A DNA stretch of 64,000 nucleotides from a virus (IMGVR_UViG_649989924_000003), one strand, 5' to 3'; shown: positions 14,280 to 39,716, counted from the stretch's first letter. Program-made: numbers and translations. Notes: generated by a model not told the origin, from the sequence alone.

Positions 14280-14469
14280 AACCTAAAGAAGAAGTTTTTT
14301 ACTTCTTCCTTTGTATACTTTTCTTATTTCAAATAACACAAACACAAAAAATTTTATCACCTCCGTATAGAAACAATTCATTTATTTAGAATCTGAATGA
14401 TTTCTATACGGTTTTATTTTCATTTTTTTGACTATATGATTCAACTATTGCATGAGTTTACACCTAATT

Positions 14470-14726
14470 CGCGACAAAATAAAACTACACAGAAGCCTCC
14501 TTTATTCCCTATTTTTTTATAATCTAGATAGACTATAAAATAAAGGAGAAAACAAGTATTACTCTGCGTAGAGGTGAATTTGCCTTTGGCTTGCAGGATA
14601 AAACCTGCCCTAAAAAAAATGCTTGCCAAGTATCCTATTCATCGTTTTTGTAGATGGGACTATTAACGTTGTCTCAGAATTTTGGAGACATGAGCCATAA
14701 AAAGCAAGGGAGCAAAGGCTCCCTTT
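14470..14726 (+). repeat. Structured direct repeat A1 (copy 1 of 2) ending in a bidirectional intrinsic terminator; embedded 15-codon peptide frame MLAKYPIHRFCRWDY
   Basis: Shares >90% identical blocks with 26995-27262: 9-bp stem CTAC(A/G)CAGA/TCTGCGTAG, GCAGGATAAAACCTGC hairpin, and the terminal GGGAGC-AAAG-GCTCCC hairpin followed by TTTTT. Confidence 0.6.
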
Positions 14727-14853
14727 TTCCTTGGCTTAATTATATTATATAATGTTTTTGTTTTTTATTTATTTTTGATTGTGATTTGAAATTATCTATC
14801 TTGTAGCTTAAACTCAAGATAATAAAAAAGAGAACCCTCTCAGATTCCCTCAA

Positions 14854-15696
14854 TTAACATTTTACAAACTCGTTAAATACTTTTATCCCCTCTTCATTTC
14901 CTAGATGATTTTTCAAACAGTCAAGCAGGTCCATTTTACTTTGATAAGCTTCAACTACATAATCACTAATAGATAATTTTTCCGCCTTTTCTTTTAACTT
15001 CCGACTTGGATACAGTCTTTTATTATTTGAATAATTTTCGAAACATTTTAGTGCCTTTTTATATTCCTTCAACTTATTTATTTGTTTTCCGTTTATTAAA
15101 AATTGAAATTCTCTATTAAATATATCCCATTTCAAATTCAATATATCATTACGAATCTCTTCATGTCTAAGTAATATTAACTTATCATAGTTAAGCTGAC
15201 CTAGTAATTGGCATAGCTCATTCTCATTTCTTATATACACTAGCATGTCCAAATCTATAAATTTTTCCAATCTCTTTATTAAGAGTGGTTCTTTTTGATA
15301 ATCAGTAAGTATTTGACTAATAGATACATTAGGTATGCAGTCAATGTTGATGCTATAATCACCTTTTAATATGTTTATGGCATCACCATATCCTTTATCT
15401 TTCGATACAATATAATACTCTTTGTTTTCTTTATATTTTAAAACCATCTTTGTTAGCTCAACAACAATACAAAAATCTAGTGAGTTCTTCTTTTGTTTAC
15501 TGGCTGTATGTGTATAAAGCCCTATATTTCTATGATTCATCAATGTATTCACACTATTAAAATCTATTTTTGCATTATTATTGCAAAAATAATAATAGTA
15601 CGCATTTTTATCAATTGGAAAAGGCAATTCAAAACCTACATTTTCACAATCAATAAAATAAACTTTCTTATATTTCTTGAATTTATTATTAAACAT
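14854..15696 (-). CDS. NYN/PIN-like nuclease domain protein (tentative)
   Basis: N-terminal VYFIDCENVG resembles the NYN motif vFIDgeNv; rest unassigned. Confidence 0.35.
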   Translation of the reverse strand: MFNNKFKKYKKVYFIDCENVGFELPFPIDKNAYYYYFCNNNAKIDFNSVNTLMNHRNIGLYTHTASKQKKNSLDFCIVVELTKMVLKYKENKEYYIVSKDKGYGDAINILKGDYSINIDCIPNVSISQILTDYQKEPLLIKRLEKFIDLDMLVYIRNENELCQLLGQLNYDKLILLRHEEIRNDILNLKWDIFNREFQFLINGKQINKLKEYKKALKCFENYSNNKRLYPSRKLKEKAEKLSISDYVVEAYQSKMDLLDCLKNHLGNEEGIKVFNEFVKC

Positions 15697-15767
15697 TTAC
15701 ACCCTTCTTTCCATTTAAATTGCCAATTTTGGGGGCATTTCACTGCTCGTCCACACCTTTACAATGA

Positions 15768-16340
15768 TTACTTTTTATGCTCTATCCCATTTAAATTCTC
15801 TAGCTTTTTTTTCATTAGCAAAGCTGTATTATATGCATCATAAGAAGCATGATGTTCAGTCCCCTTAAACTCTCCAAATTCCTTTTCAACAATCTGCATA
15901 AGTGATGGCAACTGCTGAAAGTTTTCCTGTTCCATGATATAGGATTGAAGGTCAATAAACGTCATCTCATTAAACTCCTTCTCGAATCCATTATCCTTAC
16001 AGTTCACTCTTAAAACTGCTGAATCTCTAGGCCCCCATGATACATATAAAGTCTCTAAATTATCCTTATGAATCCATTTCAGGAATTCTTTAAAAACTTC
16101 ACTAAAATTTATTGATGATAGTATTTCATCTCTTGAAACTCCTGTTAAGGACAAGATAGAATTGGAAGGAATGTTATGAGGTTTAATGATTCTTCTGAAT
16201 TTATCTCCTTCAATAATTCTTTCTCCATATCTTGTTGTATATATTTTCTTAGCTGCTAATTCAAATATTTCTGTCTTATTCCTTTCTTTTGAAAATTCTA
16301 AATCAATAACGATATATTGCCCAGCATAATCATAATTCAT
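15768..16340 (-). CDS. DEDDh 3'-5' exonuclease (DnaQ-like)
   Basis: Exo I YIVIDLEFS (D-x-E), Exo III HHASYDAYNT. Confidence 0.65.
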   Translation of the reverse strand: MNYDYAGQYIVIDLEFSKERNKTEIFELAAKKIYTTRYGERIIEGDKFRRIIKPHNIPSNSILSLTGVSRDEILSSINFSEVFKEFLKWIHKDNLETLYVSWGPRDSAVLRVNCKDNGFEKEFNEMTFIDLQSYIMEQENFQQLPSLMQIVEKEFGEFKGTEHHASYDAYNTALLMKKKLENLNGIEHKK

Positions 16341-16488
16341 TAATGGTTTTCTCTCCTTTCATTCTCCAAATAAAAAGAATCTACAATTGCTATGTAGATT
16401 CTTTTGTTTCGTATATATTACCCTTATATTTTACCACATATCAAAGGATATGTACTATGTTCATTTGAATATCAATCAATTTATAATT

Positions 16489-18669
16489 TTAGCATTTTTT
16501 AAACACCTTAAACATTTCATTTGGCAGATTCTGCGGATTCTTAACACATACAGAATTTTCATAAATTTGTCTAATTGAATCAAAATCAAAATTACCTAAA
16601 CCAATGCCAACTGAATGGACTTGATAATGTTTTTTAAAAGTATTCATGATTTTCTGCATATCCTCTATTGCAGAAGCTCCACTATATTGTGCTGCTGCAG
16701 GTTCGCCATCTGAAAGTATAAAGAAATAAAGGTCTTCATCAGGTTGAGATGATTTTACCAACTCCCTTAAAGAATGAAATATAGCCAACCCATCTCGGTT
16801 ATTGTCATGAGCCTTAATATGAAAGAGATTATCGAGGGCCTGAAGTTTTCGACAGTTTTGGAAAGATATATATTTTCTTATTCTAAATACTTCTGAAGAA
16901 AAATCTTCATCATGTCCATATACAGCAAATGGGATTTTCAGCTTTTGAGCAGCCTTTGCTACCATCCAGCAGCCAACGATTGCATTTTCTATTTTAGAAC
17001 CTCTCATACTTCCTGATTCATCTACTAAAATGATAAATCGGACTTTTTTCTTCTCTCCAGACGTTTCCTTCTTAAAAACCTGCAAATCAGTTTTTATTCT
17101 ATAAAGTCCACTCATATCTATGCTTCCTTCAAATCTGCCTTTTGATATATCATCCTGACTTCTGTGCATAAGTATCTTTTTCATTTTTTTAGATAATTCA
17201 TTCACAGATGATGATAATTCATCTTTCTTTATCATTTTTAATGCTTCTTTTCCCTCTGATGTATATTCTTCTTTCATAGAAAGAGAATCCTCCAAATCAA
17301 TCATAGATACAGAAACGCTATGATGACACGCTGTCTCGCCTGCTCTTTCATCTTCATCAGATGTAATAGAGGCTTTCTCTGCTCTATCTTCAGTCTTCTC
17401 GAAAGTTTTTGATGCTCCATCTAAAGCTTCACTCATTGAATTGATGGCTTCATCTTCTAATTCCTTTGCTGTTGGTTTTGTTCTTTCTGGAGCAGCTGAT
17501 TCATCTGACTTTGAATCAGCTTCATCTTTCAGACTCTCTTTACCAAGTTCTTTTGCAGATTCTTCCATTTCCTTTTTTAAATCCTCAGGCAATCCTAAAT
17601 CATATTTGCTTGGAGCAGAAGATTTCATTTTAGCACCACCTCTCGCAGTGCCTCCTCCGCCCATGCTTTTCACTACTTCTGAATCAACTGAACCTGTACT
17701 TTTACTATGACTTTCTGCCTCTTTTGCCATTTTTTCCATCATCTCTTTGGCATGGTCAATATTATAAAGGTACTCATTTGTAAGATTATCTGCTATTTTG
17801 TCAAGTAGTGGCTGACAAAGATTCAGTAATGCTTTGGCAGTTGCTGCTCTTTCATAGGTTGTTGGTGCTTCAAATCTTGCATATAAAGCAAGATTCTTAA
17901 TCTTTTCAATATCATCATCTTCAAACAATGCATTCAATACCTGTATATCAATATGTTTTCGATATCCAACATGTCCAAAAGCCTGTGCTTCAAAAAGCAC
18001 AGCTCTTAGAGTATTGTCATCCCAATTATCCATGTCAAGGCATACATAACCTGATTCAATGGCCTGTCTGAAAAGTTCTTTCTGCTTATCATGTCCTATA
18101 TCCCTTAAAAATGTTAGGCATCCATTTTCTTCCCTTCCTTTTTCACACATACATCTATCTACAGATAAGTCTTCATATATGTTATTGACCTCTGGCATAT
18201 TAACTTTAAAAACAAAGTCTCCTACCTTTTCTCTGACAAGAGGAATTAAATCTGCCTTATCTTCTTCCTTGGCAGAATGATAATCATTTGCTGCTTTTTC
18301 TACTTCTTTTTTAGCATCACAAAAGTCTTGGTGAAGCTGACCTATTATATTAAAGTCTGAATAAAGCAAATGCCCAGACTCATGGTAGATGAGGGCTTTT
18401 GCAATGATATGATAATGAGATGTATCAAAGGCTTTATCTTCATAAGTCCACAAATCTATATTCATAATAGGATTGCCATCTTTATCAAAACTTGTAAAAC
18501 TGCTCCCAACCTTATCCATATAAAAGTTTAAGTTCATTCTTTTGGAAACTATCTGAGCCAAACTCTTGAAAGAAGCTTTGTACCCCTTGCTGGAAAGTAA
18601 TTCTATCCCTGTTAAAATTCTTTTTTTACTTTTCTTTCCCAATAGTGATTTCTTTGTTGGTTTCTTCAT
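16489..18669 (-). CDS. von Willebrand factor A domain protein (NorD/CbbO-like partner of the AAA+ ATPase)
   Basis: C-terminal MIDAS motif ILVDESGSM; long acidic low-complexity middle. Confidence 0.7.
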   Translation of the reverse strand: MKKPTKKSLLGKKSKKRILTGIELLSSKGYKASFKSLAQIVSKRMNLNFYMDKVGSSFTSFDKDGNPIMNIDLWTYEDKAFDTSHYHIIAKALIYHESGHLLYSDFNIIGQLHQDFCDAKKEVEKAANDYHSAKEEDKADLIPLVREKVGDFVFKVNMPEVNNIYEDLSVDRCMCEKGREENGCLTFLRDIGHDKQKELFRQAIESGYVCLDMDNWDDNTLRAVLFEAQAFGHVGYRKHIDIQVLNALFEDDDIEKIKNLALYARFEAPTTYERAATAKALLNLCQPLLDKIADNLTNEYLYNIDHAKEMMEKMAKEAESHSKSTGSVDSEVVKSMGGGGTARGGAKMKSSAPSKYDLGLPEDLKKEMEESAKELGKESLKDEADSKSDESAAPERTKPTAKELEDEAINSMSEALDGASKTFEKTEDRAEKASITSDEDERAGETACHHSVSVSMIDLEDSLSMKEEYTSEGKEALKMIKKDELSSSVNELSKKMKKILMHRSQDDISKGRFEGSIDMSGLYRIKTDLQVFKKETSGEKKKVRFIILVDESGSMRGSKIENAIVGCWMVAKAAQKLKIPFAVYGHDEDFSSEVFRIRKYISFQNCRKLQALDNLFHIKAHDNNRDGLAIFHSLRELVKSSQPDEDLYFFILSDGEPAAAQYSGASAIEDMQKIMNTFKKHYQVHSVGIGLGNFDFDSIRQIYENSVCVKNPQNLPNEMFKVFKKC

Positions 18670-18708
18670 AATTTCTCCTTTATATTGAAAGGGATGAAAA
18701 AATCATCC

Positions 18709-20505
18709 CTAAACTAATTCTATTGTTTCAAATTCATATTCTTTTCTTGGCATTTTAGGTTTAACGCCTGCAAATGTATTCATAATCTCATTATAAGCAT
18801 AATCAATCACAGGGTCTCCTGTTGCAGTAAAGTCTTCTGGTTTATTTGACCCCTTTACTCTATCAACTTCTTTTGATAGAGGGGCAAGTACTGTTGTAAA
18901 AGCGGCCCTTACTGGATTGTCAATATCCTTAATCTTTTTAGCCCAAGATAGACAATTACGTAAGTCAATATTTTGTGTTGTTTCATCTCCATCATCTCTA
19001 ATTTGTGTCTTGATGTTATTCTTGCATTTAATAATCTTAGAAGCTAAATCTCTATCAATACCCGTAGAGTTAACTATGATATTTGTTTCTGTCATCTCAT
19101 CATACCCTGATAAATTATGCCACTCATCAACACGTGAAATATGAGACAAATTATCTTCTTTTGTTCCTTCATATCCTATATTCATAGCTTCACAATATCT
19201 AAAATTATCATGAGCGATGATTGTTTCTCCAGTTTGAGGAATTGTATACATTCTTGTATCATCAAGCACATTATTTGTTGCTGAAACAACTCCTGCATTC
19301 ACCATGTTTCTTTCATCAAAGAAAAAGATTCCACCATATCTCATAATTCTTGTCAATGGACCTTCACAAAATTCTGTTGTACCATCCTTAATTGTCATAT
19401 ATCCATATAAGTGAGATGTTTCTGTATCACTATTTCCTGTCAGAATCATGAAAGGCAATTTTAACGCCCCTGCCATCATTTTAACGAATGTTGTTTTCCC
19501 TGATGCAGATGGACCATAGAATCCCATTTTCCAGATATTTCCGTTTTTAAAGCTTTGAATTGATTCCCATAACTCATCTGTTATTGACTCCTTATTTTTT
19601 TCAAATAAGTCCATAGCAATTTGACGAGTTCTTTGTAAATCAAGTGGTAATTTCTTTGCTTCTGCATCAGACATTAATGAATAGTCTCTTTCAGAATATG
19701 GTACAAATACAGTTGCTGCTTTAGCCTCTTTTCCTTTTTTACTCTTTCTTTTAATAGTTGGAGCATGAATTTCCTTAACTACTTCATCCCCAATATCAAG
19801 AGATAAATCATATACATTATTGTGCATTGCAACTAAAGGAAGAATATTATATTGGATATAAGGGGCATATTCTTCATCAATGAGTTCATCATTGTCAATC
19901 TCCTTGAAATTAAATCCATCAAATGTTTTAGCAGTAAAATATAGCGAATCACATAAAGGCAAAAATTTCTCTGCTTCTGATGATTCGACTAAAGTTCCTG
20001 CGGTTATAGAATCATATTTTTCCTTAGGAAGATTTTTAAATTCACACAAATATGAGAAAACTTCTCTTGCTTCATCACTTGCTTTATTCCCCTTTTTCAC
20101 AAACTCTAATAAATCATATCCCAAAATCAATCTATAAAAGAGATGTGAATAGATATTTGTAGCATAAATCATTTTATCTGCTGGAATGACTACGAATGTT
20201 TCAATAGGATTTTTCGTACCCCCAGTGAATTTACATAAAAGAAATTCCTTTTTATCCTTTTTTCCCCACGCCATAATTGTGTTTTCATCAACAATTTGCG
20301 AATCAATTACTGCTTTAGCAATTTTACTTGATAGCCTTGATACGATTTTTCCACTCGATGGTGAAGGTGTTGTATTTTTAATTGAATAAAAATGCTCATC
20401 CTCCTTGTTTGCTGTAAATTGAGTGTTTGGAATTAAACTTCCTGCATCCGTTGAAGAAAATGCCATCCTAGATGCTTGATAAATCGTTTTTTTAATTGCT
20501 GCCAT
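18709..20505 (-). CDS. MoxR/NorQ-like AAA+ ATPase
   Basis: Walker A GPSASGKTT, Walker B IFFFDE; directly upstream of the vWA gene. Confidence 0.65.
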   Translation of the reverse strand: MAAIKKTIYQASRMAFSSTDAGSLIPNTQFTANKEDEHFYSIKNTTPSPSSGKIVSRLSSKIAKAVIDSQIVDENTIMAWGKKDKKEFLLCKFTGGTKNPIETFVVIPADKMIYATNIYSHLFYRLILGYDLLEFVKKGNKASDEAREVFSYLCEFKNLPKEKYDSITAGTLVESSEAEKFLPLCDSLYFTAKTFDGFNFKEIDNDELIDEEYAPYIQYNILPLVAMHNNVYDLSLDIGDEVVKEIHAPTIKRKSKKGKEAKAATVFVPYSERDYSLMSDAEAKKLPLDLQRTRQIAMDLFEKNKESITDELWESIQSFKNGNIWKMGFYGPSASGKTTFVKMMAGALKLPFMILTGNSDTETSHLYGYMTIKDGTTEFCEGPLTRIMRYGGIFFFDERNMVNAGVVSATNNVLDDTRMYTIPQTGETIIAHDNFRYCEAMNIGYEGTKEDNLSHISRVDEWHNLSGYDEMTETNIIVNSTGIDRDLASKIIKCKNNIKTQIRDDGDETTQNIDLRNCLSWAKKIKDIDNPVRAAFTTVLAPLSKEVDRVKGSNKPEDFTATGDPVIDYAYNEIMNTFAGVKPKMPRKEYEFETIELV

Positions 20506-20681
20506 AAATTTTCTCCTTTCTTTTCTGCTCTTTTTATCTGATATCTTTTTTCTCTCATACGTATTGTCTCCATGACTTTTGTCAAAAGAAAAAAGACTTT
20601 CTCTCTGTAGACACAGATAAAAAGTCGTTTAATAATACATATATATTTTATCATAAATCATTTGATTTGTGATAAGTCTTT

Positions 20682-21038
20682 TTATTCTATAGAGGATTTT
20701 GAATGCTTTTGAAACATCTTTTCAAACTCCTCTCTCTTCCGATGAAGATTTTCCTCGTCTAGCTGTTTCCATAACTCTTTTTCCTTTGAAATGCGTTCAT
20801 ATGCATCATTTAAAAAAAGTGCATCTGGAGACATTCCAAAATAGCGTGAGATAAGATAAGCATCATTATATGAGAGTTCATTTAACCCTCTTTCTAACGC
20901 ACTCACATATTGAGGTGTTTTTCCTATAACTTTTGCAACATCAGCCTGTGTAATATTTAACCTTTTTCGCGTTTTTCTATAATGATTTAATCTTCTGCAT
21001 TCCTGTAAATTCATAACTTCCCCTCCACTATCTAACAA
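20682..21038 (-). CDS. XRE-family HTH transcriptional regulator
   Basis: LNITQADVAKVIGKTPQYVSALERG helix-turn-helix. Confidence 0.7.
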   Translation of the reverse strand: MLDSGGEVMNLQECRRLNHYRKTRKRLNITQADVAKVIGKTPQYVSALERGLNELSYNDAYLISRYFGMSPDALFLNDAYERISKEKELWKQLDEENLHRKREEFEKMFQKHSKSSIE

Positions 21039-21328
21039 AATTCTATATTTGTCATTTTATGATATAATAAATATGTACCTTTAGTACGAATTGTTTTTTT
21101 GTGATTCATATTGACTTTCCCTCCCTTTTATTGAGGATAGAAATAACATATCAGCTTATTTTATCCTACTAGAGTTTATATCCAATCACAAGACCTATAC
21201 AAATGAGTTATCTCCCTAACAAGTTTGTATATCATGTCATTAATTTGACTTTGAAAGTAATTGATTTTAAGAGACAGCATATAATATGTCTCGTCCGAAG
21301 CCCCTCATCTAGGGGCCCTTTTTTATAT

Positions 21329-22024
21329 CTATATATTGACATTCGTATCTACATTCTCATTAAAATCAATCATATTTCCACTCACTGCATTATAAAATTC
21401 CTCATTTTCATCAAAAGGTATAAACCATTGCTGTTTCTTATCATCATAATAAAACTCAACAATAAATGTTTTCTGATAATTTCTTTTTATTGTATGGACT
21501 GCGGATTTAATCTTTTCAATATTACGAGTTAAAAATTCCTCATGATTATAATTTATATCTATCTGTGTATCATCGTTCACAAGCTGCTCGATAATCTTAT
21601 CTAATATCTCTAAATTATTATATGTCGTTACAGTTATCTTTGCTTTGGAATAAGGAATATGACTTGACCAGTTATCAACTGTCATTGTCTGTATTTGATA
21701 AGAAACATTCCCGTATATATGTTCTTCTATTATATTGTGAATATCCTGATTATTTTCAAATCCTGTCTCAATAATAAACCTTTCTGGAGCGGTTTGAGAA
21801 ATCTCTGCAATTTCTTCAACGTTTTTATTATTCCATGCTATAAATAGCGATTCTACTTTAGCCTGAATTTGAGTCCGCTGCCTATAATTATCTTTTAGCA
21901 CTCCTATAACCAATAGCAAAGCGAAGCACATGAAAACAGACATTAGCATTTTTGCTATTTTTTTATAATTAAATAATCCCCATAAAATGAATGATTTTAT
22001 CTTTAGTTTTAATCCTCTTATCAT
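21329..22024 (-). CDS. membrane-anchored hypothetical protein
   Basis: N-terminal TM segment, 231 aa. Confidence 0.45.
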   Translation of the reverse strand: MIRGLKLKIKSFILWGLFNYKKIAKMLMSVFMCFALLLVIGVLKDNYRQRTQIQAKVESLFIAWNNKNVEEIAEISQTAPERFIIETGFENNQDIHNIIEEHIYGNVSYQIQTMTVDNWSSHIPYSKAKITVTTYNNLEILDKIIEQLVNDDTQIDINYNHEEFLTRNIEKIKSAVHTIKRNYQKTFIVEFYYDDKKQQWFIPFDENEEFYNAVSGNMIDFNENVDTNVNI

Positions 22025-22226
22025 TTGTCACCTCTCTCATTTCCTTTTTATTATATCACTATAATCACATTTCTATATTATACAAACTATAATTATAATT
22101 TTTTAGCATTTATACAAATTGTGATATAATATAAGTGTCTTTTTAATACGAATTTAATTATTATAATTACTTTCAAAACGTAAGTCCTAGTTATCCATAA
22201 ATCTAGGCAGAAGGGAGAAAAATTTT

Positions 22227-22751
22227 ATGGAACAATTTATTTTATTATCAGTTTATTCAGAGTATGAAAAAACATCAGAAATGATAGCTAATACTCAAAG
22301 ATTTATACCTTTTATTGCGCTTGCATTTATATTCTTTATAATTGTACTAGTTATTGTTGGAATTTGTACTGCCTTTTTTAGCTATAAGGAGCTAACTGTT
22401 AAAAGAAAAACAGAGCAAGCAAAAATTAGTGCAGAATTATTGAAAGCGAAATCAACTTTATTAGCTGCTCAAGCACAGTTTGCTCATGCTCAGCAAAAAG
22501 ATGTTGATAGTGTAACTGCAACTGCTTTAAGAACTGCTTTTGCTAAGATTAAAAGTCCTGAGGATGTTTTATCTGTTGTTGATTCAGCTGAACATCAGGC
22601 TCATTCTCAACTTTTAAAATCACCTCTTTTTGATGATGATTTCACTATTGAGTCTGAAGCAGACCTTAATCATTTTCTTGACCGCATGGCAGAAGATTTA
22701 ACTTCTGGTTTACAATCTCAAGATGTAACTGATACTATTCCCGTAGAGTAG
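22227..22751 (+). CDS. single-pass membrane protein with coiled-coil
   Basis: TM helix FIALAFIFFIIVLVIVGI then Ala/Gln-rich helix; RBS GGGAGA upstream. Confidence 0.5.
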   Translation: MEQFILLSVYSEYEKTSEMIANTQRFIPFIALAFIFFIIVLVIVGICTAFFSYKELTVKRKTEQAKISAELLKAKSTLLAAQAQFAHAQQKDVDSVTATALRTAFAKIKSPEDVLSVVDSAEHQAHSQLLKSPLFDDDFTIESEADLNHFLDRMAEDLTSGLQSQDVTDTIPVE

Positions 22752-22805
22752 GAATTCAAAATTCTGTAGCATTTGCTACAGTTTTTTTGTGCATTATTTT
22801 ATAAA

Positions 22806-23297
22806 TTATATCTTCCTATATTCTACCTTCAAATCTTTATCAAGCTTATAGGAGATTATGGAAGGAGTGTCTTTTTTATATGCATGGACATTCATAATAT
22901 ACCCTTCATCTATCTGATGAAATTCTATTGCAATTGGAATAATAGATGTTGTCTTTAACATATCGGATACTCTCCTATGTTCTATTTTAACACTTTCACA
23001 AATCCATAAAATGTTTGAAATATTTGTAAGTTGAGAATAGATAAGAACTTGTCCAAGGTGCTTAGAGTCACTGTTTTCATACTGATTCTCTACAATCAGC
23101 CCTCCTTCTCCCTCTTTCTCTTTGTATATCATATCTATTCTATACTCACCTATTGTGGCTTCTGTTTTAAAAAGAGAAATAGGATTATCAAAGATGTTGA
23201 GGGTTTTAGCTATATCTGGAATAAGATTATTTTTAGCCAGCCATGGTGTAAAATCTGTAGTCTCATTTGGGAAGATATCTCGTAAATCAATTTTCAC
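22806..23297 (-). CDS. possible PD-(D/E)xK nuclease-fold protein
   Basis: GEYRIDMIYK...GGLIVENQYE...GQVLIY resembles the D...E.K core of NucS/Hjc-like folds; weak. Confidence 0.3.
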   Translation of the reverse strand: MKIDLRDIFPNETTDFTPWLAKNNLIPDIAKTLNIFDNPISLFKTEATIGEYRIDMIYKEKEGEGGLIVENQYENSDSKHLGQVLIYSQLTNISNILWICESVKIEHRRVSDMLKTTSIIPIAIEFHQIDEGYIMNVHAYKKDTPSIISYKLDKDLKVEYRKI

Positions 23298-23329
23298 TCC
23301 TTTCTCACTCCTGGACGTTTGCCCAAATT

Positions 23330-23995
23330 TTACTTCATCGAAAAATCTAATATCTTTATCTGATTATCTCTTTCTTTTGTCTTTATATATAAATCAAAAT
23401 GATAAAACATTTCATATAATGAATCTTCCTCATAACAAAATAGGAATTTCTTCTCCTGCAAATCAAGTATGGAATATACCCCTGTACTATTCCCTAAGAA
23501 ACATTTTAATTCTATTTTTCCCATAGTTCCAAATAAAGGATTATAGTTAGCCAAATAACTTAGATAGGGAGTGAAAACAGCAAATTCACAAAAGCCATAC
23601 TCATCTATCAGAATATCTAAACAAAAAGATTCACCTTGATTCTTGTTTCTTAAAAGAGAAAAGTTATCACTATAATATAAAGAAGCCTTTGCCTTTTCTT
23701 TCTCCATTGGTAAAACATTCATTTTCTTTAGGCTTTTCAAAATCTTTTTAAAATCATCACCCACTACAAATAGATGCCGAATACTTCCATAATTCAATTG
23801 ATGGTTTCTTATAAGAATTTCTTCTTCAATACTTTTCAGGTATGTTTCTAGTTTCAAATCAAATAACCTCCATAAAAAAAGTGTCAGGCTTAGCACGACA
23901 CTTAAAAGTATAATATCTATATAGAATCTGCTTTGGCTCCTTTCTTTTCTTGATTTGTTTTTTGAATGCTCTTGATAACATCTATTTTTACACAA
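23330..23995 (-). CDS. N-terminally anchored membrane protein
   Basis: TM IDIILLSVVLSLTLFLW; overlaps the NTase gene 3' end by 79 nt, so the true start is likely internal. Confidence 0.45.
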   Translation of the reverse strand: MCKNRCYQEHSKNKSRKERSQSRFYIDIILLSVVLSLTLFLWRLFDLKLETYLKSIEEEILIRNHQLNYGSIRHLFVVGDDFKKILKSLKKMNVLPMEKEKAKASLYYSDNFSLLRNKNQGESFCLDILIDEYGFCEFAVFTPYLSYLANYNPLFGTMGKIELKCFLGNSTGVYSILDLQEKKFLFCYEEDSLYEMFYHFDLYIKTKERDNQIKILDFSMK

Positions 23996-24819
23996 TCTGA
24001 AACATAATCCTCAAAAAGAGAATTAAGTTTATCCAACGTTATATCATTAACTGTGAGAGAATTATTCTCCAGTAACTTGTTTATTTCACATTCGGCTTTT
24101 TTCACATATGTATCAGCCAAATAAATTGCTTCTGAATACTCTATTGGTGCTGTTTTATATTTCTTAATCTTATTTTTCTCTTTTATTGATAGAAAATCAA
24201 GATTCATAAGTGATTCAAAGTTTACTTTTCCATCTAATCTAGCAACTTCTGAGACCATTTCAGATAAACGTGCAAGATGATGCAACTGCTTTGGGTTATA
24301 TTTATAAATATCAAAAATTTCTTGTCCAGAATCTGTTCTCTTTTCAAGCCCCTTTCTTTTTTCATAAATAAATCCCTGCATTGACTTAACAAATCTTTTT
24401 ACATCCCGATTTGAGATATCGTCTCTCATTTCCTTCAAAGATTTTAAAAATAATAAAGTTCTAACACGTTGGTATTCCTTATTTACATAGAAATATGGGG
24501 TATATAATAACTCCAGATATGTTGGATTCATCTTATAAAGAAGATTTCCTAATAATCTAATATCTTTCACTTCAATATGACTCTTATCATTCATGACAAG
24601 TTCTTTAGAAATCATATTTGGTCTTTCAAGTAAGTCTTTAAGCGTTGGGATAATAAAGCACTTAACATCAAAATCACTGCTATAGTCGTCAGTATATTCG
24701 TCAAAACCATAATTCTGGGAACCTTGTAAACACATAAATGCAACATGATAATCAGTATTTTCTTTAAGCCAGTTCATTTTCTTTTTCATTTCATTTAATA
24801 CCATTTGTTTTTTTGCCAT
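23917..24819 (-). CDS. Pol-beta superfamily nucleotidyltransferase (ANT/CD-NTase-like architecture)
   Basis: GS-x16-DFDV motif (LQGSQNYGFDEYTDDYSSDFDVKCF) plus a ~200-aa helical C-terminal region. Confidence 0.5.
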   Translation of the reverse strand: MAKKQMVLNEMKKKMNWLKENTDYHVAFMCLQGSQNYGFDEYTDDYSSDFDVKCFIIPTLKDLLERPNMISKELVMNDKSHIEVKDIRLLGNLLYKMNPTYLELLYTPYFYVNKEYQRVRTLLFLKSLKEMRDDISNRDVKRFVKSMQGFIYEKRKGLEKRTDSGQEIFDIYKYNPKQLHHLARLSEMVSEVARLDGKVNFESLMNLDFLSIKEKNKIKKYKTAPIEYSEAIYLADTYVKKAECEINKLLENNSLTVNDITLDKLNSLFEDYVSDCVKIDVIKSIQKTNQEKKGAKADSI

Positions 24820-24863
24820 ATTTCTATCAATCCCCCTATCTCAAGTATTTCTTTACAACCACA

Positions 24864-24892
24864 ATTATAACATATAATTAGATTTTAGTCAA
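24864..24892 (-). promoter_or_regulatory. Consensus SigA-type promoter, copy 3 (minus strand)
   Basis: Reverse complement reads TTGACTAAAATCTAATTATATGTTATAAT; drives NTase operon. Confidence 0.6.
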
Positions 24893-24925
24893 TAATATGA
24901 ATTTTATTTACTTAGATAAATTATT

Positions 24926-26176
24926 TCATCTTAAAAAACCTGGTGGATGAATATCCATTCCTAACTGTGTTGAAAAATCAGAAAGCTCCTCATCTAGTAG
25001 ACTATGACCATATTTTATGCTTTTTTCTCCCCACCTCTCTTTAATTTCCTGAATAACCTCCTCTAAATGCAACTGTTCATAACGGTCCTCTTCATTAGCA
25101 GTATTAAATAGACTCATTTGATACGCATAAGTTTCCTTCTCAACAAGGCTGCTGACAGATATTGAAAGACTTCTTAAAGGAATAGCCATATTCCAATTAT
25201 CCCTAAGAAGAATCATTACCATATCCAAGATTTCCTGTGCTATGTTTGTAGGAGTATCTACTCGCTTTTGCCTGCTTAATCCCTGTAAATCCTTATACCT
25301 CATACCAATGGATATAACAGACCCTAGCTTATTTGATTGTCGCAATCGTTTAGCAACACTTTCTGCAAGCATTGACAGGACTATCTTTGCTTCCTCAATA
25401 GTATGTATATCATGTTTTGCTGTTATGCCATTCCCTACACTCTTTATCACTTGCTGACTTGAATTGACTGAGAGAGTGTCATAGCCATTTGCAAACAGCC
25501 ATACCATTTCACCATTCTTCCCCAGAAAACTCTTGATATATTCTTTAGATGATAATGCTAAATCTCCTAATGTATAGATATTTCTTTCATTCAATTGTGA
25601 TGATGTTGCTTTTCCTATATAAAGAATATCTGCAACGGGTAATGGAAAAACCATATCTTTAAAATTATCTCGTGTTATCACTGCAAGCCCTTGTTTCTTA
25701 TCTAAGTCACTTCCTAATTTTGCAAAAACCTTATTAAAGCTTAACCCCATCGATACTGTCAACCCAAGTTCTTTAAACACTCTTCTTTGAATCTCCTCGG
25801 CTAATTCCATAGCAGTCTTATGAAAAAGTTTTTCGGTTCCTGTAATATCAATCCAGGCTTCATCCAAGCCAAAACTTTCAACCTTATCACTATATTCTCG
25901 ATAAATTCTTTTGACTTCCTCTGTATAGAATAAATAGTCATCATAATGCGGAGGAACAATTAACAGTTCTGGGCATTTCTGAAAAGCGTCTCTCAGTGAT
26001 TCACCAGTTTTAATATGATACTTTTTAGCCAAATCATTTTTTGCAAGAATAATTCCATGCCTGTCCTCTTCATGACCTCCAATAGCCATTGGAACATTTC
26101 TTAATTCTGGATACATCATTTCTTCAATCTGAGCATAGCAATGATTAATATCACTATGGATTATCCATCTTTCCAT
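24926..26176 (-). CDS. Y-family DNA polymerase (UmuC/DinB/ImpB-like)
   Basis: N-terminus MERWIIHSDINHCYAQIEEM typical of Y-family; 416 aa. Confidence 0.85.
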   Translation of the reverse strand: MERWIIHSDINHCYAQIEEMMYPELRNVPMAIGGHEEDRHGIILAKNDLAKKYHIKTGESLRDAFQKCPELLIVPPHYDDYLFYTEEVKRIYREYSDKVESFGLDEAWIDITGTEKLFHKTAMELAEEIQRRVFKELGLTVSMGLSFNKVFAKLGSDLDKKQGLAVITRDNFKDMVFPLPVADILYIGKATSSQLNERNIYTLGDLALSSKEYIKSFLGKNGEMVWLFANGYDTLSVNSSQQVIKSVGNGITAKHDIHTIEEAKIVLSMLAESVAKRLRQSNKLGSVISIGMRYKDLQGLSRQKRVDTPTNIAQEILDMVMILLRDNWNMAIPLRSLSISVSSLVEKETYAYQMSLFNTANEEDRYEQLHLEEVIQEIKERWGEKSIKYGHSLLDEELSDFSTQLGMDIHPPGFLR

Positions 26177-26289
26177 ATGTCACCCTCCTTACAATTCCAT
26201 TATATATTCTTTACAGATAATGTGATTTATTATCTGTAATAATAAAACCCTTTTTTCGGTGTTAAAACAAAAAAGAGCAGCAATGCTAC

Positions 26290-26697
26290 TCATTCGTATC
26301 TATGTTTTTTCTTAGTACAATCTTTCCAGCTTCTGCTATATTGTCTTGATATGTCATCCCATGATGTTGGCAGGTTTTTTATTCTACCGTTTTTTAAAGA
26401 TAATTTTGTATTTGGATAATTCTCCTTATATTCTCTTCTCTCCTCTTTTGAAACTATGTTCTTTAAACTATGTGTAGTGTAAGGGGTTCTATAGTGTTTA
26501 TAATGGTTATGTCCAATATGAGGACAACTTTTGTATTTGCGTTTGTAAAATTCAAGTCTTTCATTGCGGTAATTATCATAGAGTTTTTGAAGATTAATAT
26601 AAGTTTTTGTATTATATTCAGCAAAAAGGAAAACTGTTCCCTTTGTACACATGAAATAATCATCTTGAATTATAAAAAAAATTATTTTTCCAAACAT
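26290..26697 (-). CDS. hypothetical basic protein
   Basis: 135-aa K/R/Y-rich ORF. Confidence 0.4.
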   Translation of the reverse strand: MFGKIIFFIIQDDYFMCTKGTVFLFAEYNTKTYINLQKLYDNYRNERLEFYKRKYKSCPHIGHNHYKHYRTPYTTHSLKNIVSKEERREYKENYPNTKLSLKNGRIKNLPTSWDDISRQYSRSWKDCTKKKHRYE

Positions 26698-26994
26698 CTT
26701 CCCAATTTTGAAAATTTAATGTATCTGAAAATTCCCATTTACTGTCTATGATTAATTTTCCATCTTCTGAAAATTTGTAAGTGGCAGAATAAATATCGTA
26801 AGTTTTAGCTTTATAATTTGAATGTATAGCTTTCATATCTTCCTCCTAAAAAAGACTATCTTTCCTTGAAAAATAGCCACTTCGTTATATATTACTATAA
26901 ATAGTATATCATGATTAAAAACATATTTAATTTTATCAACAGGTTTATTCTTATTTTTATAATTCAAGTTATACTTGAATCTATTTTATATTTA

Positions 26995-27262
26995 TGACAA
27001 AATAAAACTACGCAGACAAGTGATTACTCTGCGTAGAGGTGAAATTGCCTTTGGCTTGCAGGATAAAACCTGCCTTAAAAAAATGCTTGCCAAGTATCCT
27101 ATTCATCGTTTTTGTAGATGTCATAGAATGCCTGGCAACAAAAAACATGTCACTCATAAACACAATTATCTTTACCCTGATTGTAGATGTGACTATTAAC
27201 GTTGTCTCAGAATTTTGGAGACATGAGCCAAAATAGGCATGGGAGCGAAAGCTCCCTTTTAT
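26995..27262 (+). repeat. Structured direct repeat A2 (copy 2 of 2); peptide frame extended to 38 codons by an in-frame 63-nt insertion
   Basis: Same stem-loops and terminal terminator (GGGAGCGAAAGCTCCC+TTTT) as copy 1. The insertion is flanked by TTGTAGATG direct repeats and keeps the frame MLAKYPIHRFCRCHRMPGNKKHVTHKHNYLYPDCRCDY. Confidence 0.6.
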
Positions 27263-27373
27263 TATATCACATTTAGAAATTTGTAATGTTTTTTTTAACC
27301 TCTAAGAAATGCATATTGTATTTTTAGTGCTCATGGAAAATTATATATATCTTCTTTTTACATTATCAGCAAA

Positions 27374-32890: not shown

Positions 32891-32979
32891 TGATATTTTC
32901 TATAGAAATATTAGCATCTCCTACCAAATATTTTATGACGAACACTCACTTTTTGCGTGTTGCTTTATAAAATAATGAT

Positions 32980-33054
32980 GGTGATTGTAGCACAATGGTA
33001 GTGCGGTGGATTGTGGCTCCAACTATACGGGTTCGACTCCCGTCTTTCACACCA
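32980..33054 (+). tRNA. tRNA-His(GTG)-like with G-1, probably defective or chimeric acceptor end
   Basis: D-arm GCAC/GTGC, anticodon loop TTGTGGC, T-arm ACGGG-TTCGACT-CCCGT and CCA encoded. The acceptor has two T-T mismatches (5-68, 6-67) and discriminator A73 opposite G-1. Confidence 0.5.
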
Positions 33055-33456
33055 AAGAAGAAATTTATTATAATGAAAAGACATCTGGGCATTTTGTGCC
33101 CATAAGTGATTTCACAATACAAGAGAACAATAACTTTATCAGATATAATCAAAGAAGGTAAATTTTAAATCAGTCATAACAAAAGAACTTATGTATCTGC
33201 GAAGTTGTGCCAGTAACATGAGACCGACGTAAAAGGCAATAGGGGACAATGACTCATATCAATTGAGAAACAGAAGAAAAACTTGGAAAAGCCTATGTTA
33301 GACACTTGAAGAGTTAGGGTTCATAGGAAAGTTCGCAATATATTTATATTTCAATACTTAGATTTAAGTGAATTAGAAATAAAAAAGACTCTATAAATGA
33401 TATTCATTTATAGAGTAAGATTCTATTTATTTTTTTTTTGCTTATGAAGAATAATA

Positions 33457-33711
33457 CTATTTAAAACTACCCACACGAGAATAGAAATTAAATGAAAAGG
33501 ATATAAAAATCCATTTTTTATTTAATTCTTCTGTGATATGAGGAAGATATCCATTGAAATATACAAACAAATATATTGAAATAAAAGAAACTATTAATCC
33601 TCCCTCAATAAATATAATGTATTTTTTTAAATCATTTTTTTTAATAAGTTTTAGAATATTAATAAAGATTAATAATAAAGTAATGGTTTCAATTAAAAAG
33701 TAAAATATCAT
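33457..33711 (-). CDS. small 2-TM membrane protein
   Basis: 84 aa; overlaps the upstream secreted-protein gene stop (4-nt overlap). Confidence 0.4.
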   Translation of the reverse strand: MIFYFLIETITLLLIFINILKLIKKNDLKKYIIFIEGGLIVSFISIYLFVYFNGYLPHITEELNKKWIFISFSFNFYSRVGSFK

Positions 33712-34511
33712 TTTTTCACATAAGTTCCTTTTCCATACATTATTCCAGGGTCTTTAGCAATTGGATAAGTTGGCCATAAATCAGATGCAGAATGACCATA
33801 CCATTTTCCTTGATAAGAAGTATTATATGCTGCATGAATAAGTCCTACACCAGCTTCATGGGCTCTTATATATGGTCTTTGTTTCGTAAAAGTACTGTAT
33901 TCTTCTAATATAAGATATGCACCAATAAAAGTTGTTCCGCAACCAAGCCAAGTTGCAAAAGCTGTTGCTATACTCTTTTGTATTCCTTTGTTTATAAGAT
34001 GATTAACAGCTTTAGTTAAGCTCCATCCAGCAATTTCTGTAATACTACCTTTAAACACTGAAACATATGAACTTGAATTAAACCCTGCCACCATATTTTT
34101 TACTTCATTGTAAGTCATATATTCAACACTTTTCATCCATACATTACCATTACTATTAACATTTGGTGCTCCACTCGTATATTTCCAATAGGCACCATTT
34201 GGTGCAGTTCCGTGAGATGTACCACTTAAAATGCCATCAAATAAACCAAATGTTGATACTGTTGGAACTTGTAAAGACACTATAGCTTCTTTACCCTTTT
34301 CTTCTAAATACTGTGTAAACATCGGCGAGGTTTCTTCATTTAAAATATAAGGGTTTTCAGCACTTCCGTCACCAGCAATAATAGATTCAGATATTTCTTT
34401 TTCATAAATATCATCTAAATCTGCTGCGAATACTGGGGTTACATTTATAGCAGCAAAAGTTAATGCTAAAATTGATACCCCAACAAAAAAATTCTTAAAA
34501 CTGAGCTTCAT
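33708..34511 (-). CDS. secreted protein of unknown function
   Basis: Signal peptide ILALTFAAINVTPVFA; 267 aa. Confidence 0.5.
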   Translation of the reverse strand: MKLSFKNFFVGVSILALTFAAINVTPVFAADLDDIYEKEISESIIAGDGSAENPYILNEETSPMFTQYLEEKGKEAIVSLQVPTVSTFGLFDGILSGTSHGTAPNGAYWKYTSGAPNVNSNGNVWMKSVEYMTYNEVKNMVAGFNSSSYVSVFKGSITEIAGWSLTKAVNHLINKGIQKSIATAFATWLGCGTTFIGAYLILEEYSTFTKQRPYIRAHEAGVGLIHAAYNTSYQGKWYGHSASDLWPTYPIAKDPGIMYGKGTYVKK

Positions 34512-34705
34512 AATACATTCCTCCCTTTTGAAACTCTTGAAATAAGAGTTGATTTATAATATAAATGTAGCATGATTTAAAGAAATTGTAAATATGTAAC
34601 AGGTTTTTATATGATTTTATACTTTGCAAAAGAAAGTAATAAGTTAAGTATTATAAATTTAAATAAATAAAAGGTACTAAAGTATCTTAATGAGGTGATT
34701 TTTAA

Positions 34706-35308
34706 ATGATATCAAAAGCTGTTGAAGATGAATTTAATCATCTTGTCACTTCTCAAAAAAACTTTTTCAACGACCATTCAGAAAATGTGTCAATGTATAT
34801 AAAAAGATTTGTTGAGAGATTGGACAAGGATATCCCTTCGTTAAACTTAACTGATTTATTTAAGTTTCATGTTGAATTGGCGGCTCTTGTTCATGATATA
34901 AGGAAACTTGCTATTCCTTTGGAAATTCTTTCAAAAAAGAAAACATTAACAAATAGGGAATATCAGATTATTCAAAATCATACTCAATATGGAACATATT
35001 ATCTCTGTAATCTTTTTAAATACTGTAAAACAGATGAAGATTTTGATTTTGCAAGCGTTTGCCAAAATATTGTCTTATATCATCATGAAAGAAATAATGG
35101 GAGTGGATATTTGCAGAATTTAAAGGGAGATACTATCCCTTTAGAAGCAAAAATAGTTGCAATTGTAGATAGTTATGATGCTTTAACATCTCAAAGATGC
35201 TACAAGCAAACACTAACGACGCAAGAGGCTATTCAGAGATTATTGGAAGAATCTTCTCAATATGATGAAAGATTGCTGAAAGTATTTATAAGGAGTTTAA
35301 AAGAGTAA
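34706..35308 (+). CDS. stand-alone HD-GYP domain phosphodiesterase
   Basis: HD (LVHDIRK), HHERNNGSGY (HHExxDGxGYP-like), DSYDALTSQRCYK. Confidence 0.7.
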   Translation: MISKAVEDEFNHLVTSQKNFFNDHSENVSMYIKRFVERLDKDIPSLNLTDLFKFHVELAALVHDIRKLAIPLEILSKKKTLTNREYQIIQNHTQYGTYYLCNLFKYCKTDEDFDFASVCQNIVLYHHERNNGSGYLQNLKGDTIPLEAKIVAIVDSYDALTSQRCYKQTLTTQEAIQRLLEESSQYDERLLKVFIRSLKE

Positions 35309-35335
35309 AAAGAATAAAAGAACGGAGGTGAGATA

Positions 35336-35545
35336 ATGAAATATAAACTAGAAATACAGAGTAATGGATTCAATATTGAAGAAAGCAGAATCATTAAGGA
35401 AGTTAAGGATTCCTTAAAACATAAAAAAATAATTCTTAACAAGATTAATGATTTGGAAATCTATTATGTAACTGATAAAAAGATTATTTATTATAATGGG
35501 CTATATAATGATGAAATCGTTAAAGGTGAAATCTATATTATATAA
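35336..35545 (+). CDS. hypothetical small protein
   Basis: 69 aa, GGAGGTGAG RBS upstream. Confidence 0.4.
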   Translation: MKYKLEIQSNGFNIEESRIIKEVKDSLKHKKIILNKINDLEIYYVTDKKIIYYNGLYNDEIVKGEIYII

Positions 35546-35700
35546 ATCATGATAGAATACAACAGTTCTATTTTTCTTTATCCTAATAATCTATGGTAAA
35601 ATAGAATTATGGAAATCGTGAGAGGACCTGTATAATATTGGCTGTTCACTTGGAGAGGTGAATGGCTTTCTTTTCACGATTTTTATAAGTATTCAGTGAG

Positions 35701-35961
35701 GTGAAGACAATGTCATATACTGAAAAAAGACATAATAGAGCAGTTTCTAGAAAGAATGAATTCAGGATTATTGAAAGAAAGAAAAAGATTTTGGATAGTT
35801 ATGGTGAGGGAGTTTTAGAGGAATTCACAAATGGGCAAACACATAGACTTGCTAAAAGTAAAATCCATTGCAGCTGTCCAATGTGTCAGGCAAAGACAAG
35901 AGCAATTGGATGGAAACATTCTGATAAAGTAAAGATTGAAAGATGCAATTATGTAGAATAA
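35701..35961 (+). CDS. small basic Cys-pair protein
   Basis: CSCPMC plus C-terminal Cys; 86 aa. Confidence 0.4.
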   Translation: MKTMSYTEKRHNRAVSRKNEFRIIERKKKILDSYGEGVLEEFTNGQTHRLAKSKIHCSCPMCQAKTRAIGWKHSDKVKIERCNYVE

Positions 35962-36280
35962 AGTTCCATAGTTTATAAATATTATATTATGATAAGGAAA
36001 AGACGTATCAAATGAGGTATGTCTTTTTCTTTATATAATGACAGCAGAGGGAAAACAGATAAATATTTGTTGTTTTCATAAATATATATAAAAAATTATT
36101 GTAAAAATAACAAATAAATGATATAATAGACTCATAAAGAAAGGACAGGTGCAAATAAATGACAAAGCATATAAAAAAAGAATGCACCTGTCTGCATTCT
36201 TTTTTTGAGGTGAAGACATGAAATAAGAAAGTTTAACAAATAAGAATGAAACAATTGAATAAAAAGAAAGGAGGTAGATT

Positions 36281-37738: not shown

Positions 37739-37772
37739 TACCTCTCTTTTTAATAAAATATGAGGTTCAAAA

Positions 37773-38093
37773 ATGTGGAAAGAGAAAAAAGAAAGTTATG
37801 TATTGGAGTATTGCTACCAAAATGGTTTCGTTTCAATACCCTTCAAATTCTCCAAAAGTCTTACCTTAAAGATTGTAACTTATACAGATTTAGAAGTCAC
37901 TGGTCTTAGGACAGCAAAACTCCTTTGCAATTTGAAGGGTGCAGGCAAGGTTGCATTATGGAAGATAAAACAAGATATTAAGGCAAAAGAAAATTATCTC
38001 ATAACAGATGAAAAATATCTTCAAGATGCTTGTTACAATCTTTATTTATCTTCTCATATTCTTTACATAGTGAAAATGGATACAAAAAAATAA
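37773..38093 (+). CDS. hypothetical protein
   Basis: 106-aa ORF. Confidence 0.4.
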   Translation: MWKEKKESYVLEYCYQNGFVSIPFKFSKSLTLKIVTYTDLEVTGLRTAKLLCNLKGAGKVALWKIKQDIKAKENYLITDEKYLQDACYNLYLSSHILYIVKMDTKK

Positions 38094-38108
38094 ATAAGAG
38101 GAAATAGG

Positions 38109-38183
38109 ATATGAATGATGGTACCCAATATAGGAATCGAACCTATAATTGATGGTTCGTAGCCATCTGTTTTATCCATTAGA
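38109..38183 (-). tRNA. tRNA-Arg(ACG)
   Basis: Cloverleaf read by hand: acceptor ACCCAAT/ATTGGGT, anticodon loop CTACGAA, T-arm ATAGG-TTCGATT-CCTAT, CCA encoded. Confidence 0.55.
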
Positions 38184-38191
38184 CTAATTGG

Positions 38192-38265
38192 GTATGTTTT
38201 TTGGAGGCCTCGACCAGACTTGAACTGGTATAAATAGGGTTGCAGCCTATTGCATAGCCATTCTG
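38192..38265 (-). tRNA. tRNA-Cys(GCA)
   Basis: Anticodon arm ATAGG-CTGCAAC-CCTAT, T-arm ACCAG-TTCAAGT-CTGGT. Confidence 0.55.
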
Positions 38266-38319
38266 CCACGAGGTCGCAAATATTTTCTTTTTGTTTTACA
38301 ATATTTTAACTTTATATTT

Positions 38320-39704: not shown

Positions 39705-39716
39705 ATATGGGCATTT

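Follow-up and report, generated by a model that had tools for sequence, protein, structure and literature searches.

The 64,000-nucleotide (nt) stretch IMGVR_UViG_649989924_000003, referred to here as the window, carries two direct copies of an element of ~300 bp on its plus strand (copy 1, 14441-14727; copy 2, 26964-27260), and we are highly confident that this element is a real small-protein gene module. Judging from sequence comparison, we consider it reasonably probable that the module represents a new type I toxin-antitoxin (TA)-like family, for which we infer both the toxicity of the protein and the antisense RNA. We favor this reading because the encoded protein is hydrophobic with a charged tail, the mRNA is predicted to begin with a hairpin and to bury its start codon, a convergent promoter faces the gene, paralogs reside on the same plasmid, and null alleles are frequent.

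As we envisage it, each ~300-bp copy would be a self-contained sense/antisense small-gene module, in which an inward promoter would drive an antisense RNA with full complementarity to the mRNA, over either its 3' part or its whole length. As long as the cell keeps the plasmid, the antisense RNA would block translation or trigger degradation of the toxin mRNA; once the plasmid is lost, the more stable, structured mRNA would be translated, and the membrane peptide would kill or arrest the cell. Dispersed modules of ~270 bp may also double as homologous-recombination substrates that reshuffle neighboring gene blocks. The predicted features of copy 2, the copy that looks intact, are listed below.

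26964-27003, plus strand: sense promoter, with -35 TTGAAT at 26975-26980, a 17-nt spacer, TG at 26995-26996, and -10 CAAAAT at 26998-27003
27008-27036, plus strand: P1, a 9-bp hairpin at the mRNA 5' end, abutting the Shine-Dalgarno (SD) sequence
27036-27042, plus strand: SD sequence GAGGTGA, kept as GAGGTGA, GGAGGTGA, or GGTGGTGA in all modules
27046-27057, plus strand: 5' strand of a long-distance pairing, covering the start codon (partner, 27225-27239)
27051-27236, plus strand: open reading frame (ORF) of the small protein, TTG start, 61 amino acids (aa) (MACRIKPALKKCLPSILFIVFVDVIECLATKNMSLINTIIFTLIVDVTINVVSEFWRHEPK); putative type I toxin
27058-27073, plus strand: P2, hairpin GCAGG-ATAAAA-CCTGC just past the start codon
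27087-27138, plus strand: P3, a 16-bp hairpin with its 3' arm within the 63-nt segment
27112-27189, plus strand: stretch delimited by the TTGTAGATG direct repeats; includes the 63 nt (21 codons, helix 2) absent from copy 1
27203-27223, plus strand: P4, hairpin TGTCTC/GAGACA, stem invariant and loop variable
27225-27239, plus strand: 3' strand of the long-distance pairing, GAGCCAAAATAGGCA, spanning the stop codon
27241-27260, plus strand: P5, intrinsic terminator (GGGAGC GAAA GCTCCC + TTTT), the mRNA end
27261-27269, minus strand: extended -10 promoter TGATATAAT of the putative antisense RNA, directed into the module

The element and its small-protein gene

The sample comprised 14 distinct element versions and three more that are distant, drawn from contigs encoding the neighbor genes, from spurious gene calls over the element, from a metagenome pattern scan, and from small-protein look-ups; eight modules, including the distant L037, L038a, and L038b, entered the comparison of architecture. 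An initial annotation, made from the window alone, had described two copies sharing long identical blocks and several hairpins, and alignment and folding bear this description out. Copies 1 and 2 share blocks of 61, 48, and 80 nt with 97%, 98%, and 91% identity, respectively, and contain a 9-bp stem (CTACRCAGA/TCTGCGTAG), the GCAGGATAAAACCTGC hairpin, and the hairpins TGTCTC/GAGACA and GGGAGC/GCTCCC, the latter followed by a T-run. There are exactly two occurrences of a 22-nt core in the window, versus 0.00 expected from shuffles. No further copies inside the window were found by nhmmer; a third copy lies on the same replicon outside the window, giving at least three direct copies. The homology begins ~35 nt further 5' than first noted (at 14441 and 26964), taking in the -35 box, as shown by the intermediate variants L029 and L027. 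The two large indels were also described correctly in substance: the insertion in copy 2 is of exactly 63 nt and lies between TTGTAGATG direct repeats at 27112-27120 and 27181-27189, and the self-pairing insertion in the first loop of copy 1, inside the 9-bp stem, is real, although it measures ~59 nt and not ~65 nt.

Comparison among variants indicates that the +1-frame ORF of the element is under purifying selection. This coding frame came out of a codon-position analysis, in which variable sites fell 16/11/30 on the three codon positions of the +1 frame (13 versions); the ratio of nonsynonymous to synonymous polymorphism (pN/pS) was 0.19 to 0.55 in all informative pairs. The ORF is intact in 11 of the 14 distinct variants, the exceptions being two in which the start codon is mutated to TAG (L026 and L029) and copy 1 of the window, which has an A8 frameshift. 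Its TTG start at 27051 stands 8 nt past the SD sequence GAGGTGA, and ATG takes its place in L034, L035, L037, and both L038 modules. Two indels, one of 3 nt in the loop of the GCAGG hairpin and the one of 63 nt, both keep the +1 frame. The 63-nt segment encodes the second hydrophobic helix, the TTGTAGATG repeats encode a repeated VDV motif, and the long form is present in all distant homologs. The initial annotation had taken the frame-keeping 63-nt indel as a sign of a selected peptide; the indel is indeed meaningful and a peptide is encoded, but the frame is +1 and the product is a hydrophobic protein.

The protein is 60 to 63 aa long (37 aa in the deleted form) and contains two hydrophobic segments (Kyte-Doolittle maximum over 11 residues, 2.4 to 3.2) as well as a charged C-terminal tail that is Lys rich in L038a and L038b. 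AlphaFold2 predicts a helical hairpin with helices at residues 7-30 and 33-57 (predicted local distance difference test score, 68). The identical ORF is called a hypothetical protein in the NCBI annotation of Coprobacillus cateniformis isolates (P0006, P0007, and P0009). Two minus-strand ORFs (MNRILGKHFF... and MPILAHVSK...) were rejected as candidates, having no SD sequence and variable ends.

Relatives beyond this plasmid family are few. A profile search of 1.84 billion representatives returned P0008, from this plasmid family, and as further relatives only P0011, from Massilimicrobiota sp. An142, and P0012, from a related metagenomic replicon with the same topoisomerase-peptidase neighborhood; the same search also matched P0005, a frameshifted call over the same DNA, and, weakly, one 1713-aa protein. 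The L037 and L038 proteins are distant profile matches only (E values, 4.5e-10 and 5.6e-5). L038 holds two diverged modules in tandem on a related replicon (4915-5235 and 5320-5640, encoding 62-aa and 63-aa proteins), each complete with promoter, P1, terminator, and an inward-pointing TGATATAAT; the gene finder missed the second ORF. Neither the element nor a 14-kb query had a BLAST match among INPHARED phages or PLSDB plasmids, and the 22-nt core pattern had 0 matches in IMG/VR. A gapped pattern had three matches in GTDB genomes, all GC rich (47 to 60% GC), which we took as chance, as nhmmer with the element found no further similarity.

Predicted structure of the mRNA and the antisense side

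All eight modules have the same order of promoter, 0 to 4 nt, a P1 hairpin of 8 to 10 bp, SD sequence, and start codon. The -35 box, an exact 17-nt spacer, and a -10 box (C/T)AAAAT are found in every one of them, with -35 reading TTGAAT except for TTGTAT and ATGAGT in two modules. A palindrome, TCAAG-N5-CTTGA (26964-26978 in copy 2), overlaps the -35 box in five of the eight modules and is imperfect in L015, L038b, and window copy 1; in its perfect form it has no other occurrence in the window, and it may be an operator at which a repressor controls the small gene. Two additional orphan palindromes lie downstream in L037. At the other end, each module closes with a GC-rich hairpin and a U-run, the sequence of the P5 helix differing in L037, L038a, and L038b.

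Both strands of the element fold better than shuffled sequences (z, −2.5 to −5.9), and stems are kept among the variants while loops vary. The initial annotation's view of the stem-loops as conserved, functional-looking RNA structure stands. As the MAFFT alignment of the leader is not structure aware, helices were compared module by module. The P1 helix is found at one position in four unrelated sequences (CTACGCAGA/TCTGCGTAG, CCTCTGTCG/CGACGGAGG, CCGTATAGG/CCTATACGG, and CCGCATAC/GTATGCGG), with a folding z of −3.2 to −4.5 and none of 200 shuffles folding equally well; in the distant modules, the first bases of the SD sequence lie within P1. P2 covaries between GCAGG/CCTGC and GCAGAC/GTCTGC (L037), with the encoded residues altered, and its loop is 3 nt longer in L015. 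P3 is perfect in L015, its column pair 101/140 is A-U in L015 and G-C in L029, and L037 has the equivalent AGCCATTCT/AGAATGGCT.

When the predicted full-length mRNAs of five diverged modules were folded, the start-codon region paired with the segment just 5' of the terminator in all five minimum free energy structures. A compensatory change in this long-distance pairing occurs in L038b (UUGGCUU/GAGCCAA to UGGGCUU/GAGCCCA), and the nucleotide motif GAGCCA..AAA..GGCA is retained in L037 despite a different reading frame over it. From these models, the mRNA structure is predicted to restrain translation, through the 5' helix at the SD sequence and the burial of the start codon. A search of Rfam 15, which the initial annotation had proposed, gave no family for the element: only tRNAs pass the gathering score in the window, and nothing meaningful appears around copy 1 at E values up to 10.

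On the opposite strand, an inward TG(A/G)TATAAT stands 0 to 25 nt from the terminator in seven of the eight modules (copy 2, copy 3, L034, L037, L038a, and L038b among them), and the flanks that carry it are otherwise unrelated. TGATATAAT is the promoter form enriched on the plasmid itself (14 sites versus 3.1 expected), with one site directly upstream of a gene located at 21329-22024. In copy 2, read on the minus strand, TTTTATTTTG comes after P1, as does UUUUAUUUU in every lineage; as P1 is then followed by a U-run, it could terminate an antisense RNA. In the same model, P5 would also serve as the 5' hairpin of the antisense transcript.

The plasmid and its dispersed copies

Its sequence indicates that the window is part of a ~185-kb RepA_N plasmid of C. 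cateniformis (182 to 190 kb in isolates). A PHROGs search of the window found no phage structural genes, which points to a large plasmid. The window is AT rich, contains 22 tRNA genes, with tRNAs at 32981-33054 (plus strand) and 38119-42019 (minus strand), and encodes, in addition to the proteins listed below, a ParB-like protein, RecD2, FtsH, a topoisomerase, a signal peptidase, and a prepilin peptidase.

43347-45059, minus strand: RepA_N initiator
55872-56825, plus strand: ParA
1584, 3528, 4461, 6385, 16408, 20625, 43212, 51946, and 53623, minus strand, and 57945 and 63538, plus strand: sites of a promoter/5' untranslated region (UTR) family

The last of these belong to a plasmid-wide repeat family, composed of an extended -10 TGnTAnAAT and a conserved leader ATATGTAATATATACGAA, which lies upstream of many operons. 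The exact PIN7 protein adjoining copy 1 occurs in 413 blocks of public assemblies, on contigs of up to 0.2 to 1 Mb and mostly from human-gut metagenomes, from which we conclude that the plasmid is very prevalent in such metagenomes. Among the genes between and beside the copies, PADLOC matched only a DEDDh exonuclease model.

Copy 1 is a decayed copy, whereas copy 2 looks intact; copy 1 has a weak -35 box, no TG, a mismatch and an insertion in P1, a frameshift at A8, and no helix 2.

14441-14480, plus strand: degenerate sense promoter, with -35 ATGAGT at 14452-14457, -10 CAAAAT at 14475-14480, and no TG
14485-14571, plus strand: P1 stem with one A.C mismatch and the ~59-nt self-pairing loop insertion
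14586-14666, plus strand: ORF in the short form, 21 codons missing and frameshifted; product LACRIKPALKKMLAKYPIHRFCRWDY
14670-14727, plus strand: P4 hairpin (14670-14690) and bidirectional terminator P5 (14706-14725) with T-run

Relatives of copy 1 have -35 TTGAGT. The A8 run lies at 14612-14619; every related copy-1 sequence with the same neighboring bases has A7, and the run is A6 in L026, where a G takes the place of its first A. With A7, the copy 1 ORF would encode the 37-aa MACRIKPALKKCLPSILFIVFVDGTINVVSEFWRHEP, and the 15-aa ORF noted earlier is the out-of-frame tail of LACRIKPALKKMLAKYPIHRFCRWDY. The terminal hairpin had been called terminator-like on both strands, which applies to copy 1 and not to copy 2. 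Elsewhere, the L009-type lineage has lost both its promoter and the 5' arm of P1, and L026 has lost its start codon. The self-complementary insertion in the P1 loop (window 14494-14562, ~59 nt, CCTCCTTTATT...AATAAAGGAG) is also present on the mosaic contig L023. Upstream, at 14364-14412, a strong 19-bp hairpin between A- and T-runs, downstream of the prepilin-peptidase gene, probably terminates transcription in both directions; Rfam "trpB motif" matches there on both strands are below threshold (26 bits versus a gathering score of 59) and were taken as chance.

The two window copies had been viewed as a pair bracketing a 12.3-kb cargo module. Instead, three direct copies are present on the replicon, and flanks have been exchanged among all of them. 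On QSCY01000004.1, copy 3 (~105.5 kb) and copy 2 (~145.9 kb) are in direct orientation, and copy 1 would lie ~12.5 kb before copy 2 if the window spacing holds. L035 combines the left flank of copy 1 with the right flank of copy 3, and L029 combines the left flank of copy 3 with the right flank of copy 2; L034 and L027 carry new flanks, and L023 and L008 are mosaics. On this sequence evidence, the copies appear to recombine, and the modules seem to mark recombination breakpoints between variable blocks. The 12.3-kb bracketing is most plausibly a side effect of repeats being dispersed.

Several rearrangements were observed around the copies. Some variants of the plasmid carry other DNA in place of part of the intervening region: a Tn916-like sigma/Xis/integrase block in L002 (637-3142), and an IS110 transposase followed by ArdC/TraG-like genes in L010 (15525-16685). 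L015 and L028 connect window position 32926 to 38123 with the orientation reversed, which suggests an inversion, in other variants of the plasmid, of the 5.2-kb segment 32927-38122, where tRNA-His and an SPFH/flotillin gene lie; a check of the segment ends found no long inverted repeats. Further, a 304-bp stretch (window 26671-26973) is missing from L015 and L024. This stretch holds a promoter-like repeat and the 5' end of a 135-aa gene (26290-26697, minus strand), and its loss puts the module directly against the 135-aa ORF.

Alternative readings, known systems, and meaning

Several observations weigh against the type I TA reading. Compared with Pfam and NCBIfam at E values up to 10, the protein matched no family (no known toxin family and no Fst/Ldr), and at 61 aa with two helices it stands at the upper size limit for type I toxins, slightly over the usual. 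RNAalifold on six close copy-2 variants gave no double-sided covariation, and the structural support is limited to the three distant modules. On the antisense side, the -10 box of copy 1 (TATAAT, 14739-14744, minus strand) is without TG. For the 3' end of the putative antisense RNA there are two competing candidates, P1 with its U-run and P3 with U7, and the U-run of P3 is not conserved. The non-Watson-Crick cells of the helices are mostly A.C on the plus strand, which is G.U on the minus strand (~7 to 2), an excess that lends weak support to a structured minus-strand RNA and is not significant (one-sided p of ~0.09, with nonindependent events). In addition, the short recombinant contigs could be assembly chimeras.

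More tentatively, we propose that the protein is a two-helix toxin in a mirror-image TA design, in which P1 would be the antisense terminator, the mRNA terminator would be the antisense 5' hairpin, and the palindrome would be an operator-like site, and that at least three copies would stabilize and reshuffle the tRNA-rich 185-kb plasmid of human-gut Erysipelotrichaceae. We regard this full version as possible rather than probable.

The alternative that survives best, which we consider somewhat unlikely, is an ordinary, nontoxic gene for a small membrane protein (for example, one regulating a membrane complex or one resembling immunity proteins or holins) under regulation by a cis-antisense RNA. 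The coding signal, the hydrophobicity, the promoter, and the terminator would fit such a gene equally well, the protein has no homology to known toxins, and two helices are unusual for type I toxins; however, the hairpin at the SD sequence, the 5'-3' sequestration of the start, the conserved convergent promoter, the plasmid paralogs, and the frequent null alleles (start codon to TAG, frameshift, deletion) argue against it.

It is improbable that the copies are primarily recombination or mobility sites delimiting an exchangeable 12.3-kb cassette, as an earlier suggestion of a recombination site would imply. Flank-swapping junctions in L035 and L029, the differing flanks of L023, L027, and L034, and the location of modules at the boundaries of variable regions would agree with such a role, and the copies do look like recombination substrates. 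Nevertheless, no terminal inverted repeats or target-site duplications were found in the copy flanks, Pfam scans of the listed ORFs between the copies found no recombinase or transposase family (as the initial annotation had stated), and no assembly with a clean deletion of the 12.3 kb, the excision that it had proposed to look for, was found. The copies number at least three and do not form a pair, the short contigs are possibly chimeric, the repeated unit is a complete selected gene, and any dispersed repeat of 270 bp permits exchange.

A noncoding structured small RNA from either strand, with the ORF incidental, is very improbable. Such an RNA would explain the strong predicted structure of both strands and the stems kept beside varying loops, and yet not the third-position excess, the low pN/pS, the interchange of ATG and TTG, the in-frame indels, the conserved SD sequence, or the protein-level homologs where the DNA has diverged; nor does it correspond to an Rfam family. 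We also rejected an Frpo/sso-type single-stranded DNA promoter, an attC site, an IS200/IS605 palindrome-associated transposable element, and a retron noncoding RNA, as partner genes are absent, the architecture does not match, and the coding signal explains the conservation.

That the copies are merely duplicated transcription terminators, the case named at the outset as one that would overturn the element, is hardly credible: P5 with its T-run is a good terminator, bidirectional in copy 1, but it accounts for only ~20 nt of a conserved unit of ~300 bp in which promoter, SD sequence, ORF, and other helices are conserved as well.

Finally, the Cys/His metal-binding-like mini-peptide (MLAKYPIHRFCR...) of a dual-function RNA, as first proposed, can be set aside with near certainty: its frame is open as a string in both window copies and in L029, and its CxC motifs coincide with the direct repeats, but comparative data refute it, as it has no SD sequence (whereas most of the 43 listed plasmid genes have one of the GGAGG type), its ATG changes to AAG and a TGA interrupts the 63-nt segment in the L015/L023/L027/L028/L030 variants, its substitutions among four copy-2 variants are 0 to 1 synonymous versus 20 to 26 nonsynonymous with codon position 3 the least variable, its grand average of hydropathy is −1.05, and the only homologs of the frame are spurious calls across the same DNA.

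Returning to the type I TA reading, a type I toxin is defined as a small (usually <60 aa) hydrophobic protein with a predicted transmembrane (TM) segment and a charged C terminus (PMC6563280). Systems of this type include the Clostridioides difficile modules CD2517.1-RCd8, CD2907.1-RCd9, and CD0956.2-RCd10, with homologs on prophages and plasmids (PMC6563280, PMC7699646, PMC5961336), and the Bacillus subtilis systems txpA/RatA, bsrG/SR4, and yonT/SR6 (PMC5848175, PMC6563280). By analogy, these convergent systems are the closest in layout to the module described here. Like the C. difficile modules, it belongs to gut Firmicutes and mobile elements, occurs as several paralogs, encodes a small hydrophobic protein with a charged tail that is unannotated or called hypothetical and lacks homology to earlier families, and has convergent genes with long complementarity (the antisense being predicted here). 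It differs from them in having no sequence similarity, in encoding 60 to 63 aa with two predicted helices rather than 34 to 53 aa with one N-terminal TM segment, in the abutment of antisense promoter and mRNA terminator, and in being known from sequence alone.

In B. subtilis, the antitoxin RNA overlaps the 3' end of the toxin mRNA, the toxins are 38 to 59 aa long, and the mRNA is structured with a poorly accessible SD sequence. Convergent genes and a structured toxin mRNA are predicted for our module too, whereas its putative toxin is unrelated to theirs, their loci are found in prophages or in the chromosomal skin element, and the overlap here, judging from the geometry of promoter and terminator, is possibly full length. 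For hok/sok of plasmid R1 and for aapA/IsoA of Helicobacter, contacts between the 5' and 3' ends keep the full-length toxin mRNA closed and its translation start hidden, and these systems have a plasmid addiction role and many, often decayed, copies. A 5'-3' lock is predicted here as in hok and aapA1, and our module, with several copies of which one is decayed, would likewise act in plasmid addiction; in hok/sok, by contrast, the antisense RNA lies at the 5' end and acts via the leader ORF mok, the hosts are Gram-negative, and there is no homology. The par locus (Fst RNA I/RNA II) of the Enterococcus RepA_N plasmid pAD1 encodes a 33-aa, single-helix Fst, and its RNA II pairs through dispersed direct repeats. 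Our module resembles par in residing on a RepA_N-type Firmicute plasmid, in its predicted convergent RNAs around a bidirectional terminator, and in a 5' helix predicted to restrain translation; it differs in its predicted cis overlap in place of dispersed-repeat pairing and in the absence of an Fst/Ldr Pfam match.

One lesson for method is that an in-frame indel together with conserved hairpins can flag a real gene while the obvious ATG ORF is in the wrong frame. As biology, a plasmid addiction module is expected rather than surprising, and the module could serve as a counterselection or plasmid stabilization tool for Erysipelotrichaceae. If confirmed, it would add a new toxin family to the type I TA systems, a class that is hard to find by homology, and would give a large tRNA-rich plasmid, very common in human-gut metagenomes, a first proposed means of maintenance.

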